DNA from: a virus
Taxonomy: Duplodnaviria; Caudoviricetes
IMG/VR virus record: IMGVR_UViG_3300013212_000088
Location: 197,425 to 261,424 of that record
Direction: 5' to 3' (one strand)
DNA: 64,000 bases
This document shows, piece by piece, positions 48,262 through 57,428 of the stretch; positions within the stretch are counted from its first letter, which is position 1; the number at the start of each line of letters is the position of its first letter. A program made the position numbers and the translations under genes. A model generated the notes under the pieces. It was not told the DNA's origin. It saw only the letters and a list, made by a program, of their open reading frames with translations, and ran no database searches.

Positions 48262-48292
48262 ATAAAAAAAGATCCCAAAAGGATCTTTTTTT
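48262..48292. terminator. bidirectional terminator
   Basis: AAAAAAAGATCC-CAAAA-GGATCTTTTTTT. Confidence 0.75.
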
Positions 48293-48920
48293 ATAATGGT
48301 AATTCAAACTGTTTACCATTCCAATATTCATTTCTGAAAGATTGAATTGAATTGTAATATTTCATTCGATCATCAAAATAAATAATTATTGGATCTTCTC
48401 CTAGCTCATGTAGAACTTTGTTTAGCAATAACCTTCCAGTTCTACCATTACCATCAATGAAAGGATGAATTACTTCAAACATATGATGAGAAACAATAGC
48501 ACAATCTATAGCTTTCATTTGTTTATCATAAACTAAATCCATAAGGTATTTAGTTTTCTCATGCCACACTCTCATCAAAGAATGGATCTGGTATGGGTAA
48601 GGACAATCTTCAAGCCCAATAAAACAATCAACTTTTCTGTAAACACCACTATTACCATGATCTTCAAAAAATGGAATGTCTCTAGTTAAAAACCTATGAA
48701 TATCCAATGGAGTGTTTTCATTTAATTCCCAACCATCTGATAAAACAAAGTTTAATGCATTCATATGGTTGTCATACATTGTGCAACCAGGCTTCGAACC
48801 AATATAACCTGGTTGTGGATCAATGTAATTACTTTCAACAACATATGTGTGCTTCCAGGATGAGTAATCAAAAGATACAACTTTTATATTCATGTTATTA
48901 CCTAGCCAAGTATACCACAT
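48291..48920 (-). CDS. Fic-domain protein (putative AMP transferase)
   Basis: canonical HPFIDGNGRTGR motif. Confidence 0.92.
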   Translation of the reverse strand: MWYTWLGNNMNIKVVSFDYSSWKHTYVVESNYIDPQPGYIGSKPGCTMYDNHMNALNFVLSDGWELNENTPLDIHRFLTRDIPFFEDHGNSGVYRKVDCFIGLEDCPYPYQIHSLMRVWHEKTKYLMDLVYDKQMKAIDCAIVSHHMFEVIHPFIDGNGRTGRLLLNKVLHELGEDPIIIYFDDRMKYYNSIQSFRNEYWNGKQFELPL

Positions 48921-48980
48921 AAAAGGATAAAGTAATTATTTATAAAGAAAAATAGAAATAGAATTAGTTGGAGAAAAAAA

Positions 48981-49184
48981 ATGTTCCAAATACAATCATT
49001 ACTTTCAAAGCTTTTAAAAAGAACTACTGGCATTCCAGAAGTCAATTTAACTAAAGTTCCATTTGTAGGCACTCTTGTTTCTGATATGCAAGAAGGACCT
49101 ATGAGAGATGTTTTAAAACAATTTTCTAAAGAAACATTGCAACAAATAATTAAAATTGCAAATGATGAACTTAAGAAAAAATAA
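48981..49184 (+). CDS. hypothetical protein
   Basis: 67 aa with GGAG SD. Confidence 0.6.
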   Translation: MFQIQSLLSKLLKRTTGIPEVNLTKVPFVGTLVSDMQEGPMRDVLKQFSKETLQQIIKIANDELKKK

Positions 49185-49249
49185 TCAAAAAGGTTTGCAT
49201 AAAAGTTTAATCGTATAAAAATACAATAACGGAAACGTAGAGGAATTAT

Positions 49250-50164
49250 ATGGAAATTAGAAGTTTAATTATTTTAGCTGCAAAAGCTGACTCAGAAGGA
49301 AATTTTAGAGTTGCTGATAGATTAACTGCAAAAATTGAAACAATGTCGAGAGAGGCAAGTTTCAGTTTTAGTCCAGCTTTTAAAGCACTTATTGAAAAAA
49401 TACCTGGTGTAGCAGATGGAGTAAAAAGAAGTGATTCGATTCCTGAGGGTTTTGAATTTTACAACGGAATGCATATACCTAAAGCAAGTATGCCCTCAGT
49501 CCAAGCAGCAGCTGCAGAAGCAGTTAAGGCAGCTAAAGAAGCAGCTAAGGCAGCTAAGGCAGCTGGAGGAGCAGCTAAGGCAGCTGGAGGAGCAGCTAAG
49601 GCAGCTGGCGGCGGTGGTGGCGGTGGTGGCGGTGGTGGCGGTGCTTCCATTGGTGATATAAATATTACTGGATTTAAAGGCGACGCAGGGGCCAGAGGAC
49701 TTAGAGGTTTAAGAGGATTGGCAGGGGCTGCAGGACCTGCAGGTTTAAGAGGATTGGCAGGGGCTGCAGGACCTGCAGGTCCCGCTGGGGCATGGTGGCC
49801 AGGCCTTCTTGCTGGCTTATTAAGTGGTGCTATCGGGGCTGGTGGAGTTGCAGCCTGGTTGGCTAGCAAAGGTGCCGATAATGCTGTTGTAAGAGATATG
49901 GAAAAACACTTAGAAAAACTCCCGCAGTATCAAATGATGACAAGAAGAACAAATTCTGGCGATTTGACAGGTGCTAAAGCAATACAAGCACAAAACTTTG
50001 TTGATACCAATTCAACAAATACAAGATTGAAGAATCAAAGAGACTGGTACAATCTTGCACTCCAACAGTCAGGTGGAGACTCAAACTTTGCTAATAACGT
50101 TATTTCTTTAGTTAAAGCAACTCCACAAATGCCTTCATCAATTGGTGGCGGCCCAAACATATAA
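49250..50164 (+). CDS. leader-bearing Gly/Ala-rich protein with short collagen-like segment
   Basis: LAAKADSEGNFRVADRL leader; AAKAAGG repeats, poly-Gly, 13 G-X-Y triplets, hydrophobic helix. Confidence 0.75.
   Translation: MEIRSLIILAAKADSEGNFRVADRLTAKIETMSREASFSFSPAFKALIEKIPGVADGVKRSDSIPEGFEFYNGMHIPKASMPSVQAAAAEAVKAAKEAAKAAKAAGGAAKAAGGAAKAAGGGGGGGGGGGGASIGDINITGFKGDAGARGLRGLRGLAGAAGPAGLRGLAGAAGPAGPAGAWWPGLLAGLLSGAIGAGGVAAWLASKGADNAVVRDMEKHLEKLPQYQMMTRRTNSGDLTGAKAIQAQNFVDTNSTNTRLKNQRDWYNLALQQSGGDSNFANNVISLVKATPQMPSSIGGGPNI
49550..49777 (+). repeat. in-frame tandem repeats: 21-bp unit x about 3, GGY run, exact 36-bp duplication
   Basis: GCAGCTAAGGCAGCTGGAGGA at 49550 and 49571, partial at 49592; 49706-49741 identical to 49742-49777. 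Confidence 0.9.
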
Positions 50165-50169
50165 TCAAA

Positions 50170-51429
50170 ATGAATACTAATGAATTAATTAAATTAGCAA
50201 AACAAGCTGATTTTGAAGGCGATTATGATTTAGCTGATTATATTGATAATCAGCTAAGAACATCATCAAATAATAAAAATATTAGAGAAGCTGTAGATTT
50301 AGGAGCTACTTTTGGTAAAGTCTTTAAACCAATAGGAAATGCCTTAGGAAAAATCCCTGAGTTTTTTGGTTATGGTAAATATAAAGCTCCTTTAAATTGG
50401 TCAAAACCCGCTGTTGATTTGGCGACTAGTAACCCAAATATATCTGGTAACGCTTTTCAAAAGGCATTAGGTTCTATAAACAAAGAAATTAATTTAGATG
50501 CAAATCAAGTTAAAAACCTAGAAACTACTTTGATCCAGCAAATGACTAGTTCAATTGGTCAAGCAGATGTTCCTACTGTTAAAGCTCTTGAAAAATTAGT
50601 TAATAAAGAATTTAGTAAGCTAACCATTGCAGAGAAAGGATTAATTGCAAAATATGCTAGAGAAACTGGAATTGTTGGCAGAAGAACTGATGCAGACTTT
50701 ACTGATATATTAGATTTGGTAAGCGGTAAATCCTTACAAGTTAGACCAAGAACAGTCCAAAGAGTTAATAGAAATACAAAACTATTAGGCGGAGGTGCTG
50801 CTGCTGCAATGGCCGCTCCAGGTTTATATGGAGCGTTTGGTCCACAGGCTCCAGACGCTACTGGTTCTTCTATTCCTGACGGACCTGCAATGACTGGTAT
50901 GCCTCAACTTGGTCCAGGAATGGGTGGATTCGGTGGTGGCATGGGTGGATATAATGGTCCTCAGGCTAACGGCCCTAATATGGGCAACTTTGCTCCAACA
51001 CAGCCTATTGGTTTAGGTTATGGAAGCACCATGACAGATCCAGCATCTCAAAGAGGTAGAGAATCTGGTGGTTATGCACCTACATCTGGATACACAGGCA
51101 GAAGTGAAAGAGAAATCAATCCTGCTGCAAAGTTTAGAACAAATGAAGTTGGAATGATGAGAGGTGAAGCACCTCCAGTATATAATAATTTTAATGCTGG
51201 TTATAATCCTGGTATTCAACCTTCAGCAGCTCCTATGGCACAACAGTCAGTGTCAATTCCACCTGTAAATAATGCAGTGGGTCCTCAAGCATTACCAGCT
51301 AAATTTGCAGATGATTTAAGACCAGCAACTCCTGCAGAAGCAGCAAAATACGAAGAACCTGAAACTCCTCCAATGACACCAGGACAAATTCAAAATGCAT
51401 TGAATCCTCTGTCAGGAGCAGGTTATTAA
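50170..51429 (+). CDS. leader-bearing protein with Gly/Pro-rich C-terminus
   Basis: LAKQADFEGDYDLADYIDNQL leader. Confidence 0.7.
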   Translation: MNTNELIKLAKQADFEGDYDLADYIDNQLRTSSNNKNIREAVDLGATFGKVFKPIGNALGKIPEFFGYGKYKAPLNWSKPAVDLATSNPNISGNAFQKALGSINKEINLDANQVKNLETTLIQQMTSSIGQADVPTVKALEKLVNKEFSKLTIAEKGLIAKYARETGIVGRRTDADFTDILDLVSGKSLQVRPRTVQRVNRNTKLLGGGAAAAMAAPGLYGAFGPQAPDATGSSIPDGPAMTGMPQLGPGMGGFGGGMGGYNGPQANGPNMGNFAPTQPIGLGYGSTMTDPASQRGRESGGYAPTSGYTGRSEREINPAAKFRTNEVGMMRGEAPPVYNNFNAGYNPGIQPSAAPMAQQSVSIPPVNNAVGPQALPAKFADDLRPATPAEAAKYEEPETPPMTPGQIQNALNPLSGAGY

Positions 51430-51505
51430 AAACTAATTCCCATATAACAGTGGGGATTTTTTATAACTAAATTAATATCAACAATTTTTTAAGGAGATAT
51501 ATCTG

Positions 51506-51679
51506 ATGACAAAAAGAAAAAAAATTTTAACACCAGAACAAGAAGCTTTACTAAATCAATTTCAAAATAACAATAATGATAATAACGATAATAATAAGTT
51601 AGATGAAAATAATAATGTGAAAGCTAATTCTTCGGGATTTAAACCAATGATAAACAGAAGTGGGGCAAGAGGAAAGTAA
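51506..51679 (+). CDS. 57-aa Asn-rich peptide (not in ORF track)
   Basis: AAGGAG SD; MTKRKKILTPEQEALLNQFQNNNND...RSGARGK. Confidence 0.6.
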   Translation: MTKRKKILTPEQEALLNQFQNNNNDNNDNNKLDENNNVKANSSGFKPMINRSGARGK

Positions 51680-51695
51680 TTAAGCTTTGACTTCA

Positions 51696-51734
51696 AAAAA
51701 AATAAGGCCCCATTTTTGGGGGCCTTATTTTTTT
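51696..51734 (+). terminator. intrinsic terminator
   Basis: AAAAATAAGGCCCC-ATTTTT-GGGGCCTTATTTTT. Confidence 0.75.
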
Positions 51735-51800
51735 CTCATCAGCTTAATTTAAAAAAAACCCCTCTAAAAAAATCAAAAAAACTCTATGCTTTAAATTATC

Positions 51801-51838
51801 ATAAATCAATAAAAATCAACATATTTTTATTGATTTAT
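51801..51838. repeat. perfect 16-bp inverted repeat with 6-nt spacer
   Basis: ATAAATCAATAAAAAT-CAACAT-ATTTTTATTGATTTAT. Confidence 0.8.
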
Positions 51839-51861
51839 TGATCTATCCACTTACCCAAATA

Positions 51862-51892
51862 AAAAAAGGAGAAACAATAGTTTCTCCTTTTT
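51862..51892 (-). terminator. terminator downstream of pilin-like gene
   Basis: AAAAAGGAGAAAC-AATA-GTTTCTCCTTTTT. Confidence 0.75.
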
Positions 51893-51908
51893 CTTGGGTT
51901 AATAAGAA

Positions 51909-52877
51909 TTACCTTACTGGAAAACCTGCCTGATCAAGAACTTGCTGACCTGTTGGGTAGTAGCTCTTTCCCCATAGGAAGTTATTAGGATTAATTGTAG
52001 TGTCAAATTTGAAGAACTTAGCATGTCCATCTGCAAAAACATAGTTAGATCCTCCTGTATGACGACCTGGTTCCATGAAACGAATATGGTATCCAAAATC
52101 AGCAGAAACTGTACGACATCCACCAGTACCATTTGATGCAGTGGAATCAGAAGGACCACCCCATCCAAGTGCACCTTGTGCTTCGTTCTTTGTAATTGCA
52201 TAAACAGGTCCTGTTGCATCCGCAACATTCTGTCCGGCCCATGCACCACCTGCGGCGGTACGCATCATAGCGTTGACAGGGCGGTGAGACTTGTTACGCT
52301 TTTCATTGTTTGTCTGGCCAGTTGAGCCGAGGAGGATACAGCTCAGACTACCTGTCATCTCAGCAATAGCAATCACATCTGCAGGTGCATCGACAGCGGC
52401 GATAGAAACGATGTTTGGCGCATCCTGTGGACCACGCTTGCGTGGAAGGATTGCAGAGTTTGGAATGTATGACAAGCGAGGTACCTGTGCTTCGCATCCA
52501 AGGGTATTAACATCAAGCCAGTTTGCACATGGAGCATTATCTGGACGAATGCCTCTAGTTGGATCTGATGGACAAACCCAAACTTGCTCATTCTTAATAT
52601 ATGGATGAATCATTGCTGTGAAGTGAACATAACCACCAGCTGATCCGCCATTTGTAGTTGCAGTGTTATTCTTATAGAAGTAAGCAGTTGGATATGTTTC
52701 ATCATAATCCTGTGTGTACATCATTAAACCCAAACCAATTTGCTTCTCATTTGATAAACAACTAGCAGAACGAGCCTTGTCTCTTGCCTGTGCGAAAACA
52801 GGGAACAAGATAGCGGCCAAAATTGCGATAATGGCAATGACAACGAGTAATTCAATAAGTGTAAATGCTTTTTTCAT
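51909..52877 (-). CDS. prepilin N-methylation domain protein (DUF1559-like) with C-terminal H-X9-DG motif
   Basis: [33 protein letters not shown]...CLSN.KQIG; [16 protein letters not shown]. Confidence 0.92.
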
Positions 52878-52982
52878 TTTTTAATCATTTCCTTTCAGAG
52901 ATTCATTAGTATTATTCCAACTTTTAATTAGATAAATATTAAATAAATATTAAGAAATTAAATTATTGTATATCTACTACAA

Positions 52983-53510
52983 ATGATAAGAATAAATCCA
53001 ATATATAAGAGTGAAATTACAACACAGTCATATAAGCCTAAAGACACTATAGAAGATGTAAAATTAATTGATCTTCCCCTATATAATGATGACTGCGGGG
53101 GCTTTACAGAAATAGTGCGGCTCAATGAAAACAATACAGTGATAAATCTAGAACAATTCCAAGCAAAACAATTATCATGGTCAATTGTTCATCCAGGTGT
53201 TATTAAAGCATTTCATCTACATTACACACAAGATGATTTATGGTTTGTTCCGCCCACAGAAACTCTCCTAATAGGTTTGTTTGATTGTAGAGAGGATAAA
53301 AGCGGAAAAATGCGGTTTGTAATGGGGGCAGGTAAAGCACAAATCCTATACATTCCAAAAGGGGTGGCACATGGATATACAAATCACACAAATGAAAAAC
53401 AATCAATTATTTATTTAACAAGCCAACATTATAACAGAGAAGAGCCAGATGAAAGAAGATTGCCTTGGGACACATTAGGTAAAGACTTCTGGGATATACA
53501 AAAAGGCTAG
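52983..53510 (+). CDS. rmlC: dTDP-4-dehydrorhamnose 3,5-epimerase family (cupin)
   Basis: GGFTE, PGVIKAFHLH..QDD, LYIPKGVAHGY. Confidence 0.85.
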   Translation: MIRINPIYKSEITTQSYKPKDTIEDVKLIDLPLYNDDCGGFTEIVRLNENNTVINLEQFQAKQLSWSIVHPGVIKAFHLHYTQDDLWFVPPTETLLIGLFDCREDKSGKMRFVMGAGKAQILYIPKGVAHGYTNHTNEKQSIIYLTSQHYNREEPDERRLPWDTLGKDFWDIQKG

Positions 53511-53519
53511 ATTTGCCCC

Positions 53520-53822
53520 TCAAATTGGACCAGACATAAACAAGAAATCAATTATTCTACATAAACAAATAATAGTGAAAATTATTAAAGAATAAAACTC
53601 ATATGCTTTTTTATAATGTGGGCGGAAATCATAATAGCTCTTGTATCCATAATAAACAGTGACACATAAACACAGGATATAAAGAAACCAAGAAATAAAA
53701 TCACTAGATGTTAATGCCCAAATATAATATAGAACACATTGAAATAAGAAGAATAACATACTATTCTTATACCTAGAGTAAAAAATATTAGCACTGTAGA
53801 ATATTAATGGTATGTGGTACAA
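53520..53822 (-). CDS. small membrane protein
   Basis: several hydrophobic aromatic-rich segments; start uncertain. Confidence 0.4.
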   Translation of the reverse strand: MYHIPLIFYSANIFYSRYKNSMLFFLFQCVLYYIWALTSSDFISWFLYILCLCVTVYYGYKSYYDFRPHYKKAYEFYSLIIFTIICLCRIIDFLFMSGPI

Positions 53823-54723
53823 ATTAGCAGCTCAAGGCATTATCGAACACAAAGCAACAGACCAAGAAATTGATGCGCTTGTTGATAGTAGTTTGATTGA
53901 TAATGGCGAAAATTATATAATCAATCAAGCTAATCTAAAAAATGGCTTGATGAGTATATTTCCAAACTTAAAAAACGTGGAATTTGAAAATTTGTCTGAT
54001 TGTTTTGGTGAATATATCTTAGAACTTTCATCAATAACATTACCAATTGAAATTTCTAAAAATAATGTTCCAATATTTAAAGCTACACTACATCACGAAC
54101 TCCAACATGCACAAGACCCAAGAATGCAAAATGTACCTGAAAAAGTGCAAGCAAAAAGCGACGAAGCTAATCTTGCAAACTATTTAGGTGTTTCTAAAAT
54201 TGATGAAAATACTCAAATACCAACATATGAAGAAGTTGTTGAAAATGTATTCCAAAGTTTCGAAGGCAGAGAATCAACACCAGAAGACCAAGATTTTATA
54301 AATCAAATCAAACAGAAATATACACCAGAAAAATATAATCTAGTAATTGAAAGAATCAAAGCTGGTGATCATCCTTATTTAAATGCAGAATACGAAAAAC
54401 CAGCCAATTTGAAGGATTTTAGAACCTTATTTTCTATCTTTAATCTAATGTCAGTAAAGGAAATTATTTCTTCAAATCCATCATATGACAATCAACAACA
54501 CATTAAAACAATTATTAATATTTTAAGAAAGCCATCTTCTCCCACTTTTAAAAAATTAGAAGAATTAATAATACAAAAAAACCCATCTTTTGCTGAAACA
54601 TTTCCTCCAACATTTTTAAGAGAAATGAATACAAACTCAAAATATGAAATACAATTTAAAAAACAAATGGGAAATATTATCAACGAATTACAACAACTAT
54701 TAGAATCAGGTAAAGGTAACTAA
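53812..54723 (+). CDS. MWY-leader protein with HExxH zincin motif
   Basis: MWYKLAAQ; TLHHELQHAQD. Confidence 0.7.
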   Translation: MWYKLAAQGIIEHKATDQEIDALVDSSLIDNGENYIINQANLKNGLMSIFPNLKNVEFENLSDCFGEYILELSSITLPIEISKNNVPIFKATLHHELQHAQDPRMQNVPEKVQAKSDEANLANYLGVSKIDENTQIPTYEEVVENVFQSFEGRESTPEDQDFINQIKQKYTPEKYNLVIERIKAGDHPYLNAEYEKPANLKDFRTLFSIFNLMSVKEIISSNPSYDNQQHIKTIINILRKPSSPTFKKLEELIIQKNPSFAETFPPTFLREMNTNSKYEIQFKKQMGNIINELQQLLESGKGN

Positions 54724-54724
54724 A

Positions 54725-55423
54725 ATGTGGTATCGAAAAGCAATGGATTTGAGTAATCTTAATAGAGAATTCTCAATTGAAAAAGAAAATGCAGTTGAAG
54801 ATTACGATGAGCAATCAATGAAAGAAAGCGTGGAAGATTTGTTTGCTAAAGTAAGAGCAGGCGAAGAATATACATCTCCTTCCGGCGCAATTAAAGTTAT
54901 GCCACCAAGAGAAGAACCACCATTTACAGATGAAGAAGTGGATGGCAGATTTGATAGCGAAAGCACCGATGCATATGATGTTTATGAGGGAATAAAAGAG
55001 TTCCCATCTACAATAACCACTCTAAAAAATACAGCTCAAATTATATCCAGATATATCGATAGCGGAGTGTTACAAGAGTTTAATAGAAAAATTGATTCAT
55101 TATCTCCTATGTTAGAAAAGATAATTCAATCAGCTTTTGAAAAAGTACAATTGATTGAATCTTCTTTCAACAACCCTGAACTATCTAGACAATTTGATAG
55201 AGAAGGTTATCCAAAACTAACTGAAGCTGAAGTAATGAACTCTAATATATTAACACTCCAAATTACAAAAGCTATCAACGAATTATATAACTCTATAAGA
55301 AATGAAGATGCTCGACAAGAATGGCTTAATACAATGGCAAGAAAAAGTGTGGCTGCAAACTTTTTAAGACCTGCAGATAAAACAAGATACAAAGAAACAA
55401 TGAATAATATTTGGGGCCTATAA
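54725..55423 (+). CDS. MWY-leader hypothetical protein
   Basis: MWYRKAMD. Confidence 0.7.
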   Translation: MWYRKAMDLSNLNREFSIEKENAVEDYDEQSMKESVEDLFAKVRAGEEYTSPSGAIKVMPPREEPPFTDEEVDGRFDSESTDAYDVYEGIKEFPSTITTLKNTAQIISRYIDSGVLQEFNRKIDSLSPMLEKIIQSAFEKVQLIESSFNNPELSRQFDREGYPKLTEAEVMNSNILTLQITKAINELYNSIRNEDARQEWLNTMARKSVAANFLRPADKTRYKETMNNIWGL

Positions 55424-55425
55424 TT

Positions 55426-55932
55426 ATGTGGTATAGATTAGCAATAATTATCAACGATGGACAATTAGAATCAGAACTTCTCAATAACGCAAAAACTACT
55501 GATGATATTAAAAGCAACTATAGAATGCTTGTAAAAAAATACCACCCAGATGTAAACCAAGATCCTGATTCCACAGAAAACTTAAAAAACCTTACTAGAG
55601 TTTATGAAGAAGTGAGAGATCAACCACTATACACTACAAATGAAATAAGAAATGAAACTACTGAAGATTCTGTTAGAGATGATATAGAACTTCAAGATAA
55701 TTTCTTAAACACAGATGAAGAAGCTTTAAAAATGGGAATAGTTCAGTCTGTAGAAACATATTTCAATAATAATGTTCCTGAAATGTATGACACTCCTGGC
55801 TTTGATGTCTACGAAAATATAACAGAAATAATTTTCGAAAATACTAAAAATATAAACCCAACACCATATAAAACAATTTCAAATCTTATTAACTCTATAG
55901 CTGGAAAATATATAAGGGAGAATTATAACTAA
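55426..55932 (+). CDS. MWY-leader J-domain (DnaJ-like) protein
   Basis: MWYRLA; DDIKSNYRMLVKKYHPDVNQDP with HPD motif. Confidence 0.8.
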   Translation: MWYRLAIIINDGQLESELLNNAKTTDDIKSNYRMLVKKYHPDVNQDPDSTENLKNLTRVYEEVRDQPLYTTNEIRNETTEDSVRDDIELQDNFLNTDEEALKMGIVQSVETYFNNNVPEMYDTPGFDVYENITEIIFENTKNINPTPYKTISNLINSIAGKYIRENYN

Positions 55933-56156
55933 TTCTTCTTTAAACTCTTAGCATATTTTAACATAGAATCTACTTGGGCCTTACTTGGCTTCTCACTACT
56001 ATCAACTCTATACATATCATAAATAGTCTTACGTAAATCTTTAGTCTTTAACTTACCACCAAACAAAACCGCAGCAGGTTCATGGCATTTAATACACCGA
56101 TCCCTAAACTCAACTTTAGGATCAACTAATAACAAAAATATTAAAATTGCATTCAT
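55929..56156 (-). CDS. small monoheme c-type cytochrome-like protein
   Basis: hydrophobic N-terminus MNAILIFLLL, CIKCH, candidate axial Met in IYDM; ATG at 56156. Confidence 0.65.
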   Translation of the reverse strand: MNAILIFLLLVDPKVEFRDRCIKCHEPAAVLFGGKLKTKDLRKTIYDMYRVDSSEKPSKAQVDSMLKYAKSLKKN

Positions 56157-56229
56157 ATCTGTTTTATAAAAGGACAGATAAAACAAAATCAGTAAAATAA
56201 TACTATCAACCCTCAAAAAGGAAAAAAAT

Positions 56230-56565
56230 ATGAATAAAAGAACTGTAATGGCATCCTTGAACAAGATTGCTAACGAACTCGACAACAATGGCTTACACAA
56301 TGAAGCCGATACAGTAACCAAAGTTATGTCCAGATTAGCTTATGATGATTTTGATGAAAGAGATTATTATGCTGACAAAATGGAAGATAACATTGAAGAT
56401 TACATGCCATATGGTGATGAAGACGATGATATGGACATGGACGAAGATGATGACTTTGACATGGGTCCAGAATCAGAACCATTCGACTTTAGTTCACCAG
56501 AAGATAAAGACGACATGTATGGTAATGATATGAAAGGATACATGGACAAAGATACCGATTTTTAA
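56230..56565 (+). CDS. NKR-leader protein 1 with Asp/Met-rich acidic body
   Basis: MNKRTVMASLNKIANELDNNGLHNEADTVTKVMSRLAY. Confidence 0.75.
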   Translation: MNKRTVMASLNKIANELDNNGLHNEADTVTKVMSRLAYDDFDERDYYADKMEDNIEDYMPYGDEDDDMDMDEDDDFDMGPESEPFDFSSPEDKDDMYGNDMKGYMDKDTDF

Positions 56566-56582
56566 TCTTAAATAAAATCAAA

Positions 56583-56624
56583 AATAAATAAGTGGCAATA
56601 AAACAATTTTGCCACTTATTTATT
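56583..56624 (+). terminator. 16-bp stem-loop between NKR genes
   Basis: AATAAATAAGTGGCAA ... TTGCCACTTATTTATT. Confidence 0.55.
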
Positions 56625-56638
56625 TATTAGGTAAACAA

Positions 56639-57067
56639 ATGAATAAAAGACAAATAATAGCATCTTTAATCAAGATTGCTAATGAATTAGATAATAATGG
56701 TATGAACAATGAAGCAGATGCATTAACCAATGTAGCTGAAAGATTTGAAGATACTAGATCACCTATTGAAAAACGTGCTTCAGAAAAAATTAAATTATTA
56801 CAAGATAAATTGAGAAAAATAATTTATAAGTCATATAAAACATCTAAAGATGGAGATATGACAAGAACTGATGATATTCAAGCTGTTCTTATGAAAATAT
56901 TATTTGAAAAAGATTTAGGAACATTCTTGAGAGATGAAGCTTACAAAACTGGAGCTAACCTTCCTGCTGGCCAAATCATGACAATAGTTCATTATATTAA
57001 TATGCTCAAAGAAAATCCATATGCCCCATCTGAAATTTATAATTATATTGACACATTATTAGATTAA
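56639..57067 (+). CDS. NKR-leader protein 2
   Basis: MNKRQIIASLIKIANELDNNGMNNEADALTNVAERF; ATG at 56639. Confidence 0.75.
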   Translation: MNKRQIIASLIKIANELDNNGMNNEADALTNVAERFEDTRSPIEKRASEKIKLLQDKLRKIIYKSYKTSKDGDMTRTDDIQAVLMKILFEKDLGTFLRDEAYKTGANLPAGQIMTIVHYINMLKENPYAPSEIYNYIDTLLD

Positions 57068-57072
57068 ATAAA

Positions 57073-57428
57073 ATAAATAAAAGACAAATCATAGCATCAT
57101 TAAATAATATAGCCAGCACATTAGATAATTCAGGTTTATTTTGCGAAGCTAATACAATCACCAAAGTAATGATAAAATTAGCTCAAGAGGAAAAAATAAA
57201 ACAAAATATTCTGATGATGAGTTAAATGAAGCTATGACAGAACAAGGCATTCAAAAAGCCTTCGAAACATACAAAAGCAAAGGCGGAAGCGCAAGCCAAG
57301 ATTCATTTGCATCACAATTCAAATTTTTAATTGGAAGAATGCTTGAAGGCTTTACTAACAATATGGGTGTTGCTATTGCTGAAGAAAAATACAAAACAAA
57401 TAATCCATTCTGGGATCCTAGAGACTAA
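57073..57428 (+). pseudogene. NKR-leader protein 3 with ATA start and a frameshift
   Basis: ATA-AAT-AAA-AGA-CAA-ATC... reads INKRQIIASLNNIASTLDNSGLFCEANTITKVMIKLAQ and stops at 57223-57225; the -1 frame continues into ORF 57234-57428. Confidence 0.65.

Follow-up and report, generated by a model that had tools for sequence, protein, structure and literature searches.

The closest described counterpart of the element analyzed here is the capsid targeting sequence (CTS) of phage T4, a tag of 10 residues in which targeting depends on residues 4 and 7 and processing, separately, on residues 8 and 10 (PMC9026906), and the published models of head-packaged, injected effectors are T4 Alt and the polyvalent proteins (PMC5512222). 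Here we describe a family of short N-terminal peptides, MWY followed by [KR]-x-[AS], that open three consecutive genes (positions 53812-55932) in the final 64 kb (hereafter, the window) of a single 261,424-bp contig, 33.6% guanine plus cytosine (IMG/VR record IMGVR_UViG_3300013212_000088, positions 197,425 to 261,424). Positions are those of the window unless marked as genome, that is, those of the whole record. The major capsid protein (MCP) encoded in this genome shows 48% identity to gp27 of Bacillus phage G and 30% identity to the MCP of Tunturiibacter phage Tunturi 5, and we therefore regard the virus as an uncultivated jumbo phage from the lineage of phage G. The MWY tag recurs on otherwise unrelated proteins of this phage and its relatives, is selected as a peptide, is exchanged in nature for a second, longer leader, and ends in a motif that is also found at the N-termini of head-module proteins, a combination that points to a possible role in loading proteins into the head.

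All three genes are on the plus strand and open with the codons ATG TGG TAY. Gene 1 (53812..54723; 303 amino acids (aa); tag 53812-53829) starts with MWYKLAAQ, gene 2 (54725..55423; 232 aa; tag 54725-54742) with MWYRKAMD, and gene 3 (55426..55932; 168 aa; tag 55426-55443) with MWYRLAII. The stop codon of gene 1 ends at 54723 and the ATG of gene 2 is at 54725, a spacer of 1 nucleotide (nt); the stop codon of gene 2 ends at 55423 and the ATG of gene 3 is at 55426, a spacer of 2 nt; gene 1 has no neighbouring plus-strand gene upstream. The original prediction, which singled out these genes, had described exactly such starts 1-2 nt after the preceding stop, fused to unrelated bodies, and in both respects it was accurate: the bodies of the three proteins fall into separate BLAST groups, and the residues directly after the tags are AQGIIEHK.., MDLSNLNR.. 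and IIINDGQLESELLNNAK.., respectively. The mechanically called open reading frame (ORF) of gene 3 begins at TTG 55411; the methionine of MWY is the start of, or lies within, all 120 homologues listed. A Sec or Tat signal peptide, which would require a basic N-terminal region and then a hydrophobic core of at least 10 residues ahead of an A-x-A site, was considered and rejected, given that the tags, 6-9 residues long, have no hydrophobic core and are followed by polar residues (AQGIIEHK, MDLSNLNR).

Genome-wide, eight ORFs begin with MWY and then, within six residues, contain [KR]-x-[AS], compared with 0.12-0.18 MWY starts expected from the tryptophan and tyrosine frequencies in 242-350 genes (P ~1e-11 to 1e-12). 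At positions 2-3, WY is the most frequent residue pair of the genome, and five of the tagged starts lie outside the window, at genome 54227, 56160, 149134, 150506 and 179576. A ninth MWY start, MWYTWLG, opens the ORF of a Fic-domain gene (48291..48920, minus strand); because the orthologues start at an internal MNI, this start (48920) is probably an upstream extension of the ORF, and the gene itself is probably untagged. Among four partial relatives that were scanned for ATGTGGTAY, one of them a 300-kb contig, 24 of the 29 sites mark the start of an ORF of 60 aa or longer, with MWY[KR]x[AS] at the N-terminus in 23 of the 24, whereas a control with the reversed pattern gave 9 hits. One relative (L001) has an additional tagged gene (L001:11735-12418, plus strand), flanked by its orthologues of genes 2 and 3, in which GTG, read as Met, precedes WYRTA; the tag is thus retained even with an alternative start codon. 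Taken together, the tagged ORFs from the genome and the four partial relatives make up 19 BLAST-unlinked groups. Six residues, the length that the original prediction had taken as the minimal tag, is the commonest form; longer (9-residue) forms, MWYSRIKTA, MWYRIKKA and MWYRNTKTA, also exist, and the tag is therefore better seen as two parts, MWY and [KR]-x-[AS], with zero or three residues between them. Phage G has no MWY start, we found no cultivated phage with the tag, and a full-text search of the literature for MWYK and MWYR yielded nothing relevant.

A shared start of this kind could be a nucleic-acid signal, and a DNA-level translation signal was the alternative that the original prediction had itself named as its refutation. 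Under this scenario, ATGTGGTA would either help to start translation on leaderless or Shine-Dalgarno-poor mRNAs or provide microhomology for cassette recombination, with the peptide being a by-product. The sequences upstream of the tags lend it some substance. A -10-like element, TGTAGAATA (53795..53803, plus strand), conserved in the relative L018, ends 8 nt before the ATG of gene 1, with no Shine-Dalgarno sequence between the two, and first-in-operon MWY genes (window 53795-53811; L018, L001, L003, L015) have a -10-like element, TAGAAT/TGAATA, 8-10 nt before the ATG, again without a Shine-Dalgarno sequence, which suggests leaderless or near-leaderless transcripts; TGTAGAATA is a possible promoter for a transcript of this kind from the operon. 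The leader swaps considered below also show that recombination occurs at the junction. The codons of the tag nevertheless argue against such a signal: only 8 nt are fixed, and codons 3, 4 and 6 vary synonymously or conservatively. In the tagged ORFs, Tyr at codon 3 is encoded by TAT in 20 cases and by TAC in 16, codon 4 is AAA, AAG, AGA, AGG or CGA (including the CGA versus AGA alternation), and the Ala codon of the tag is GCA, GCT or GCG. Moreover, Shine-Dalgarno-like content differs little between tagged genes (16/36) and the others (129/241), the internally coupled genes 2 and 3 are tagged as well, and the replacement for the tag is a 31-residue leader that is conserved as a protein. We consider this explanation highly improbable.

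The tag is kept throughout the homologues of proteins 2 and 3; in protein 2, conservation is highest in the tag and the following seven residues, among homologues with as little as 26% identity. Three protein 2 homologues were called without a tag (226 aa, starting with MDL..), which is probably a gene-calling choice because the gap to the upstream gene, 19 nt, matches the tag exactly in size. In a profile search against 1.8 billion representatives, we identified very distant homologues of protein 1 (E 1e-10), found by profile only, that start with MWYKKA-QQG or MWYRNTKTA-QQG and keep HEIRHxxDPR. Because synonymous codons vary and the tag survives in these profile-only homologues, selection acts at the level of the protein. 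The first 12-13 residues are disordered in both AlphaFold models (proteins 1 and 2), with a predicted local distance difference test score (pLDDT) <50 over residues 1-12 of protein 1, and the tag is, by these data, a selected, flexible N-terminal peptide.

That the tag is a module, as the original prediction held, is borne out by nature's own tag swap. Among 102 full-length orthologues of protein 1, 70 begin with MWYK[LFI]A-AQGII, and the other 32 carry instead a helical leader of 31 residues, M[YH]IKDLLEQAYLLDKKGYYKEADNVTRIIT[AS], directly ahead of the identical AQGII. On a maximum-likelihood tree built from the protein 1 bodies alone, well-supported branches force at least 7 leader switches, and none of 500 label shuffles (0/500) needs as few; both leader types are found together in single genomes. 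Given these repeated swaps at an identical junction, the two leaders are, by the evidence of the alignments and tree, exchangeable modules, and presumably both serve the same partner.

The leader family that replaces MWY on the gene 1 orthologues is present in the window itself, on a gene (56230..56565, plus strand) with a 31-37-residue leader, MNKR..ASL.KIANELD..G..EAD.VT.VMSRLA, and on a second gene (56639..57067, plus strand), detected with the leader hidden Markov model (HMM), in which the leader end lacks [KR]-x-A. According to the HMM, long leaders occur on about 10 proteins of the genome, once at the C-terminus: a 226-aa protein (genome 65174-65854, plus strand) starts with MKRLKIA|Q and carries the long-leader module at residues 200-227. 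The module therefore seems to be a portable docking domain, not an N-terminal signal only. A third long-leader copy (..NKINKRQIIASLNNIASTLDNSG..KVMIKLAQEE..) is found at 57052-57222 on the plus strand; it has Ile (ATA) at the start Met of its relatives and a stop after about 45 residues, compared with 118 aa in the relatives, and is probably a decayed copy.

The exchange of leaders also bears on a possible role as an N-terminal degron, in which AAA+ proteases of the host or the phage would recognize the tag and limit the lifetime of potentially toxic enzymes. N-terminal ClpX recognition motifs have been described for E. coli substrates, and the aromatic-aromatic-basic-hydrophobic string at the N-termini of the tagged proteins resembles these motifs. 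In addition, phage G encodes both ClpP and ClpX (PMC12484599). However, no ClpP (Pfam) was found in the present genome, the completeness of which is estimated at 73%, and a degron would be unexpected on a conserved gene wedged within the head module (see below), as well as in an element that interchanges with a folded 31-residue helical hairpin that also occurs C-terminally. Accordingly small is the weight that we give to a degron, which we regard as improbable.

The proteins that carry the tag include at least one recognizable domain in the three-gene stretch and a second one that is more tentative. In protein 1, two invariant motifs, HHELQHxxDP and GDHPY, span residues 94-103 and 185-189, respectively, and HELQH (residues 95-99) is invariant among 32 aligned homologues. 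In the AlphaFold2 model, which is of moderate confidence (pLDDT 76.6, predicted template modelling score 0.39), strands 57-61, 74-78 and 80-82 are followed by a helix (83-100) bearing HExxH, the arrangement of a zincin, in which HExxH lies on a helix after a three-stranded sheet. Asp102 is located three residues past the HExxH motif, and a zincin variant with Asp in this position, HExxHxxD as in protein 1, has been described (PMC5512222). Protein 1 has no Pfam match, and fold searches (pdb, afdb_clusters, pdb_via_wide) yielded no significant match; Foldseek returned only sub-threshold matches to zincins (DUF4157, IrrE/ImmA, selecase, ATP23, M48; E 0.03-2), ESM Atlas gave weak leads only (LPD23 and SprT-like/Zn_peptidase_2, at 0.86-0.88), and hhalign against the zincin region of Tunturi 5 gp321 aligned the HExxH helix alone, with a probability of 2.5%. 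The MPTase-PolyVal family (Pfam) has no match across the genome, and a tblastn search of 50,697 phage records with protein 1 gave no match. Thus, the zincin motif of the original prediction stands as an invariant HExxHxxDP on a modelled helix after a small beta-sheet, and without a significant Pfam or fold match behind it we describe protein 1 as a putative zincin-like metallopeptidase.

Protein 2 has a conserved MDLxxLN, a SGEEYTSPSGAI segment and a C-terminal helical bundle that is predicted with confidence; fold searches (pdb, viral) revealed no structural relative, and there was nothing in ESM Atlas. Protein 3 contains a J-domain (residues 21-65, HPD at 40-42) and a conserved C-terminal domain. 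It matches Pfam DnaJ (PF00226) with E 8e-10 and 39.1 bits, compared with a gathering cut-off of 27.8, and H40-P41-D42 is invariant in 24 homologues; by these sequence criteria, it is a J-domain protein, as originally predicted.

Elsewhere in the genome, the tag is found on a protein of a type linked to virion genes in a related phage. A tagged 456-aa protein (genome 149139-150506, minus strand, equivalent to L008:9139-10506) contains an ART-PolyVal domain (PF18760; E 2e-10, 41.9 bits compared with a gathering cut-off of 31.2; orthologue 2e-11, 45.3 bits), the match covering the first third of the model only (profile positions 8-49 of 140). The adjoining 278-aa gene is tagged as well (MWYSRIKTA). 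The homologous ART-PolyVal domain of the cultivated phage Tunturi 5 lies inside gp321 (L085:16761-20849), a 1362-aa polyvalent protein in which Pfam recognizes an SprT-like zincin (just below the cut-off), a 2H phosphoesterase, ART-PolyVal (E 6e-48), GNAT and a second ART-like region; annotated as a MutT/NUDIX hydrolase, it has no NUDIX domain in Pfam at E up to 0.001. The gp321 gene lies between the head-tail connector and tail genes.

The tag is also tied to the head module of the phage itself, which is encoded on the minus strand at genome 169-190 kb and, besides the MCP, includes a protease-scaffold of 1408 residues and a portal fused to a DUF559 nuclease. A 170-aa MWY gene (MWYRIKKA|QFGGG) is located directly upstream of the portal gene, a position that is conserved in the relatives; beyond the motif, its product has no significant similarity to phage G gp10 or gp13. 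Furthermore, the end of the tag, [KR]-x-[AS], is common to the short N-terminal peptides of head-module proteins: these peptides end with ..NVLKTA|AQ in the portal, ..HMLKTA|SK in the protease-scaffold and ..KLTKIA|Q in a long-leader protein, and read MKNSTKTA|G in a 533-aa protein and MSSKKNIKIA|A in a 317-aa protein; a 786-aa protein has KFVK[IV]A at its N-terminus and two internal sites. Like endings are found in the head module of phage G, namely MKRLISKTA|A in gp13, encoded just upstream of the portal, ..RLKKTA in gp20 and ..LVKTA..VVKIA in gp19.

On the strength of gene position, motif sharing and cargo type, we infer that the tagged proteins are packaged into virions and cleaved, that is, that MWY and [KR]-x-[AS] could form a two-part head-loading and cleavage tag resembling the T4 CTS. 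We place about even confidence in this reading. In the mechanism that it suggests, these freshwater relatives of phage G would put the tag on accessory enzymes, including the zincin-like protein, the J-domain co-chaperone and the ADP-ribosyltransferase. The aromatic MWY part, or the 31-residue leader in its place, would dock the protein to the assembling head core, either at the protease-scaffold or in the portal region, and the docked protein would be enclosed in the procapsid. The head protease would then cut off the tag after [KR]-x-[AS], and the enzymes would be delivered together with the DNA into the next host, as T4 does with Alt and the internal proteins.

Several observations weigh against head loading. 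N-terminal [KR]-x-A is only about 2-fold above internal windows (20/219 vs 7-13). In the long-leader variant of protein 1, which ends with ..TRIITA|AQ, the basic residue occupies P5 instead of P3, and [KR]-x-A is missing altogether from one long leader in the window; given long leaders without the canonical motif, cleavage cannot be obligatory. No MEROPS family could be assigned to the protease domain, for which there was no Pfam or PDB sequence match either. About 55 kb separate the three genes from the head module; they lie in an island close to the end of the contig, beside early-looking genes, and the region upstream of gene 1 matches the presumed late promoter in its -10 half only. The J-domain protein, finally, could equally act inside the infected cell. 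In a scan of the genome for that presumed promoter (WAGG-N17-19-AGAAWA), the sole full match before an MWY gene is at genome 150615. When the protease domain (residues 40-270 of the 1408-aa protein) was modelled in complex with residues 1-45 of protein 2, the score was 0.02, which is no evidence for or against.

Some of the same facts would suit a non-capsid partner. The tag and the long leader might dock to, or be processed by, another phage protease (S8, S1, S26), the DnaK/DnaJ chaperones or another intracellular assembly, in which case the enzymes would act in the producing cell, unpackaged. Modularity and swapping show a shared partner without identifying it, the tagged genes lie far from the head module, and one of the tagged proteins is itself a J-domain protein. 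Peptides of the type bound by Hsp70 have a hydrophobic core with flanking basic residues, and the W-Y-basic-hydrophobic string of the tag resembles these. This possibility, although a serious one, appears to us unlikely, because it does not account for the conserved MWY gene that abuts the portal gene, for the end motif common to the N-termini of the portal, the protease-scaffold and other head-module proteins, phage G included, or for a cargo that includes ART-PolyVal, a domain encoded in the virion module of Tunturi 5. Head loading by a CTS-like tag therefore remains our preferred reading.

The three genes belong to an island (48291-57067) of tagged and effector-like genes, which consists of the Fic gene, two long-leader genes, a DUF1559 pilin-like gene, RmlC, the three MWY genes, a gene for a small CxxCH protein on the minus strand and two further long-leader genes. 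The first two long-leader genes (49250..51429, plus strand; 304 and 419 aa) were recognized with the leader HMM (E 7e-9 and 1e-9, respectively), and no Pfam family was found in either. The island is retained in relatives with differing content (L001, L003). We detected the studied stretch in 19 DNA sequencing runs from 8 studies of lake, freshwater and estuary water; it is present in one RNA run, with a share too small for use.

More broadly, the whole freshwater phage-G-like clade might specify its injected proteome by a minimal two-part code of 6-9 residues, functionally interchangeable with a 31-residue helical docking leader, such that effector domains that are elsewhere fused into a giant polyvalent protein are here separate and individually addressed. 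We regard this generalization as possible but somewhat doubtful. If it holds, the packaged enzymes of host takeover could be read straight from metagenomic sequence. Should the tag indeed direct proteins into the capsid, it would rank among the shortest such signals known and would allow the injected proteins of uncultivated, globally distributed lake jumbo phages to be listed from sequence alone; included would be an ADP-ribosyltransferase, a putative metallopeptidase, a J-domain protein and some 16 families without an assigned function. That addressing and cargo are separable modules is shown directly by the swaps seen in nature, which also mark the exact junction for engineering. The principle, the CTS, is already known from T4; new here are the repeated exchange of leaders at a fixed junction, the persistence of the tag in profile-only homologues, the codon evidence, and the link between the ART-PolyVal cargo and the polyvalent protein of Tunturi 5.

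Among known systems, the cargo-loading peptides of encapsulins are short and C-terminal, remain uncleaved and bind the shell protein directly inside an HK97-fold shell. They illustrate that about 10 residues suffice to address unrelated enzymes into such a shell; they have no similarity to the MWY tag in sequence or position. In the phiKZ-like phage SPN3US, many internal proteins of a jumbo-phage head, the gp245 substrates, are marked by a protease motif and trimmed at maturation, as we suppose for the MWY phage; there, however, the two shortest N-terminal propeptides have 20 and 24 residues, the rest have 111-254, and they share no sequence (PMC10052503), whereas the MWY tag is a uniform 6-9 residues on about 19 families. 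The likeness to the T4 CTS, which is carried by IPI-III and Alt (Mullaney and Black 1996, reviewed in PMC9026906), is closer: in both cases, a short N-terminal peptide is found on otherwise unrelated proteins, an ADP-ribosyltransferase is among the cargo, and the cargo set differs between related phages, and the division into two halves, targeting residues followed by a prohead-protease site, is proposed here for the MWY tag as well. The differences are that the MWY tag has 6-9 residues rather than 10-19, ends with [KR]-x-[AS] instead of the L/I-x-E of T4, shows no sequence relation to the CTS, is interchangeable with a folded 31-residue leader and is known from genes alone; furthermore, it belongs to the phage G lineage, with an HK97-type MCP without the delta domain and a protease fused to a 1400-residue scaffold. 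With the polyvalent proteins (Iyer et al. 2017, PMC5512222), of which Tunturi 5 gp321 is an example, the tagged proteins share ART-PolyVal and, putatively, a zincin with Asp three residues after HExxH, and in that system, too, linkage to virion genes is seen and the proteins are predicted to be delivered into the host. Whereas polyvalent proteins join their domains in a single giant polypeptide, thought to undergo processing, here the domains are separate small tagged proteins, which could be considered an 'unbundled' polyvalent arrangement. If so, the tagged single-domain cargo and the polyvalent fusions would be two solutions to one delivery problem.

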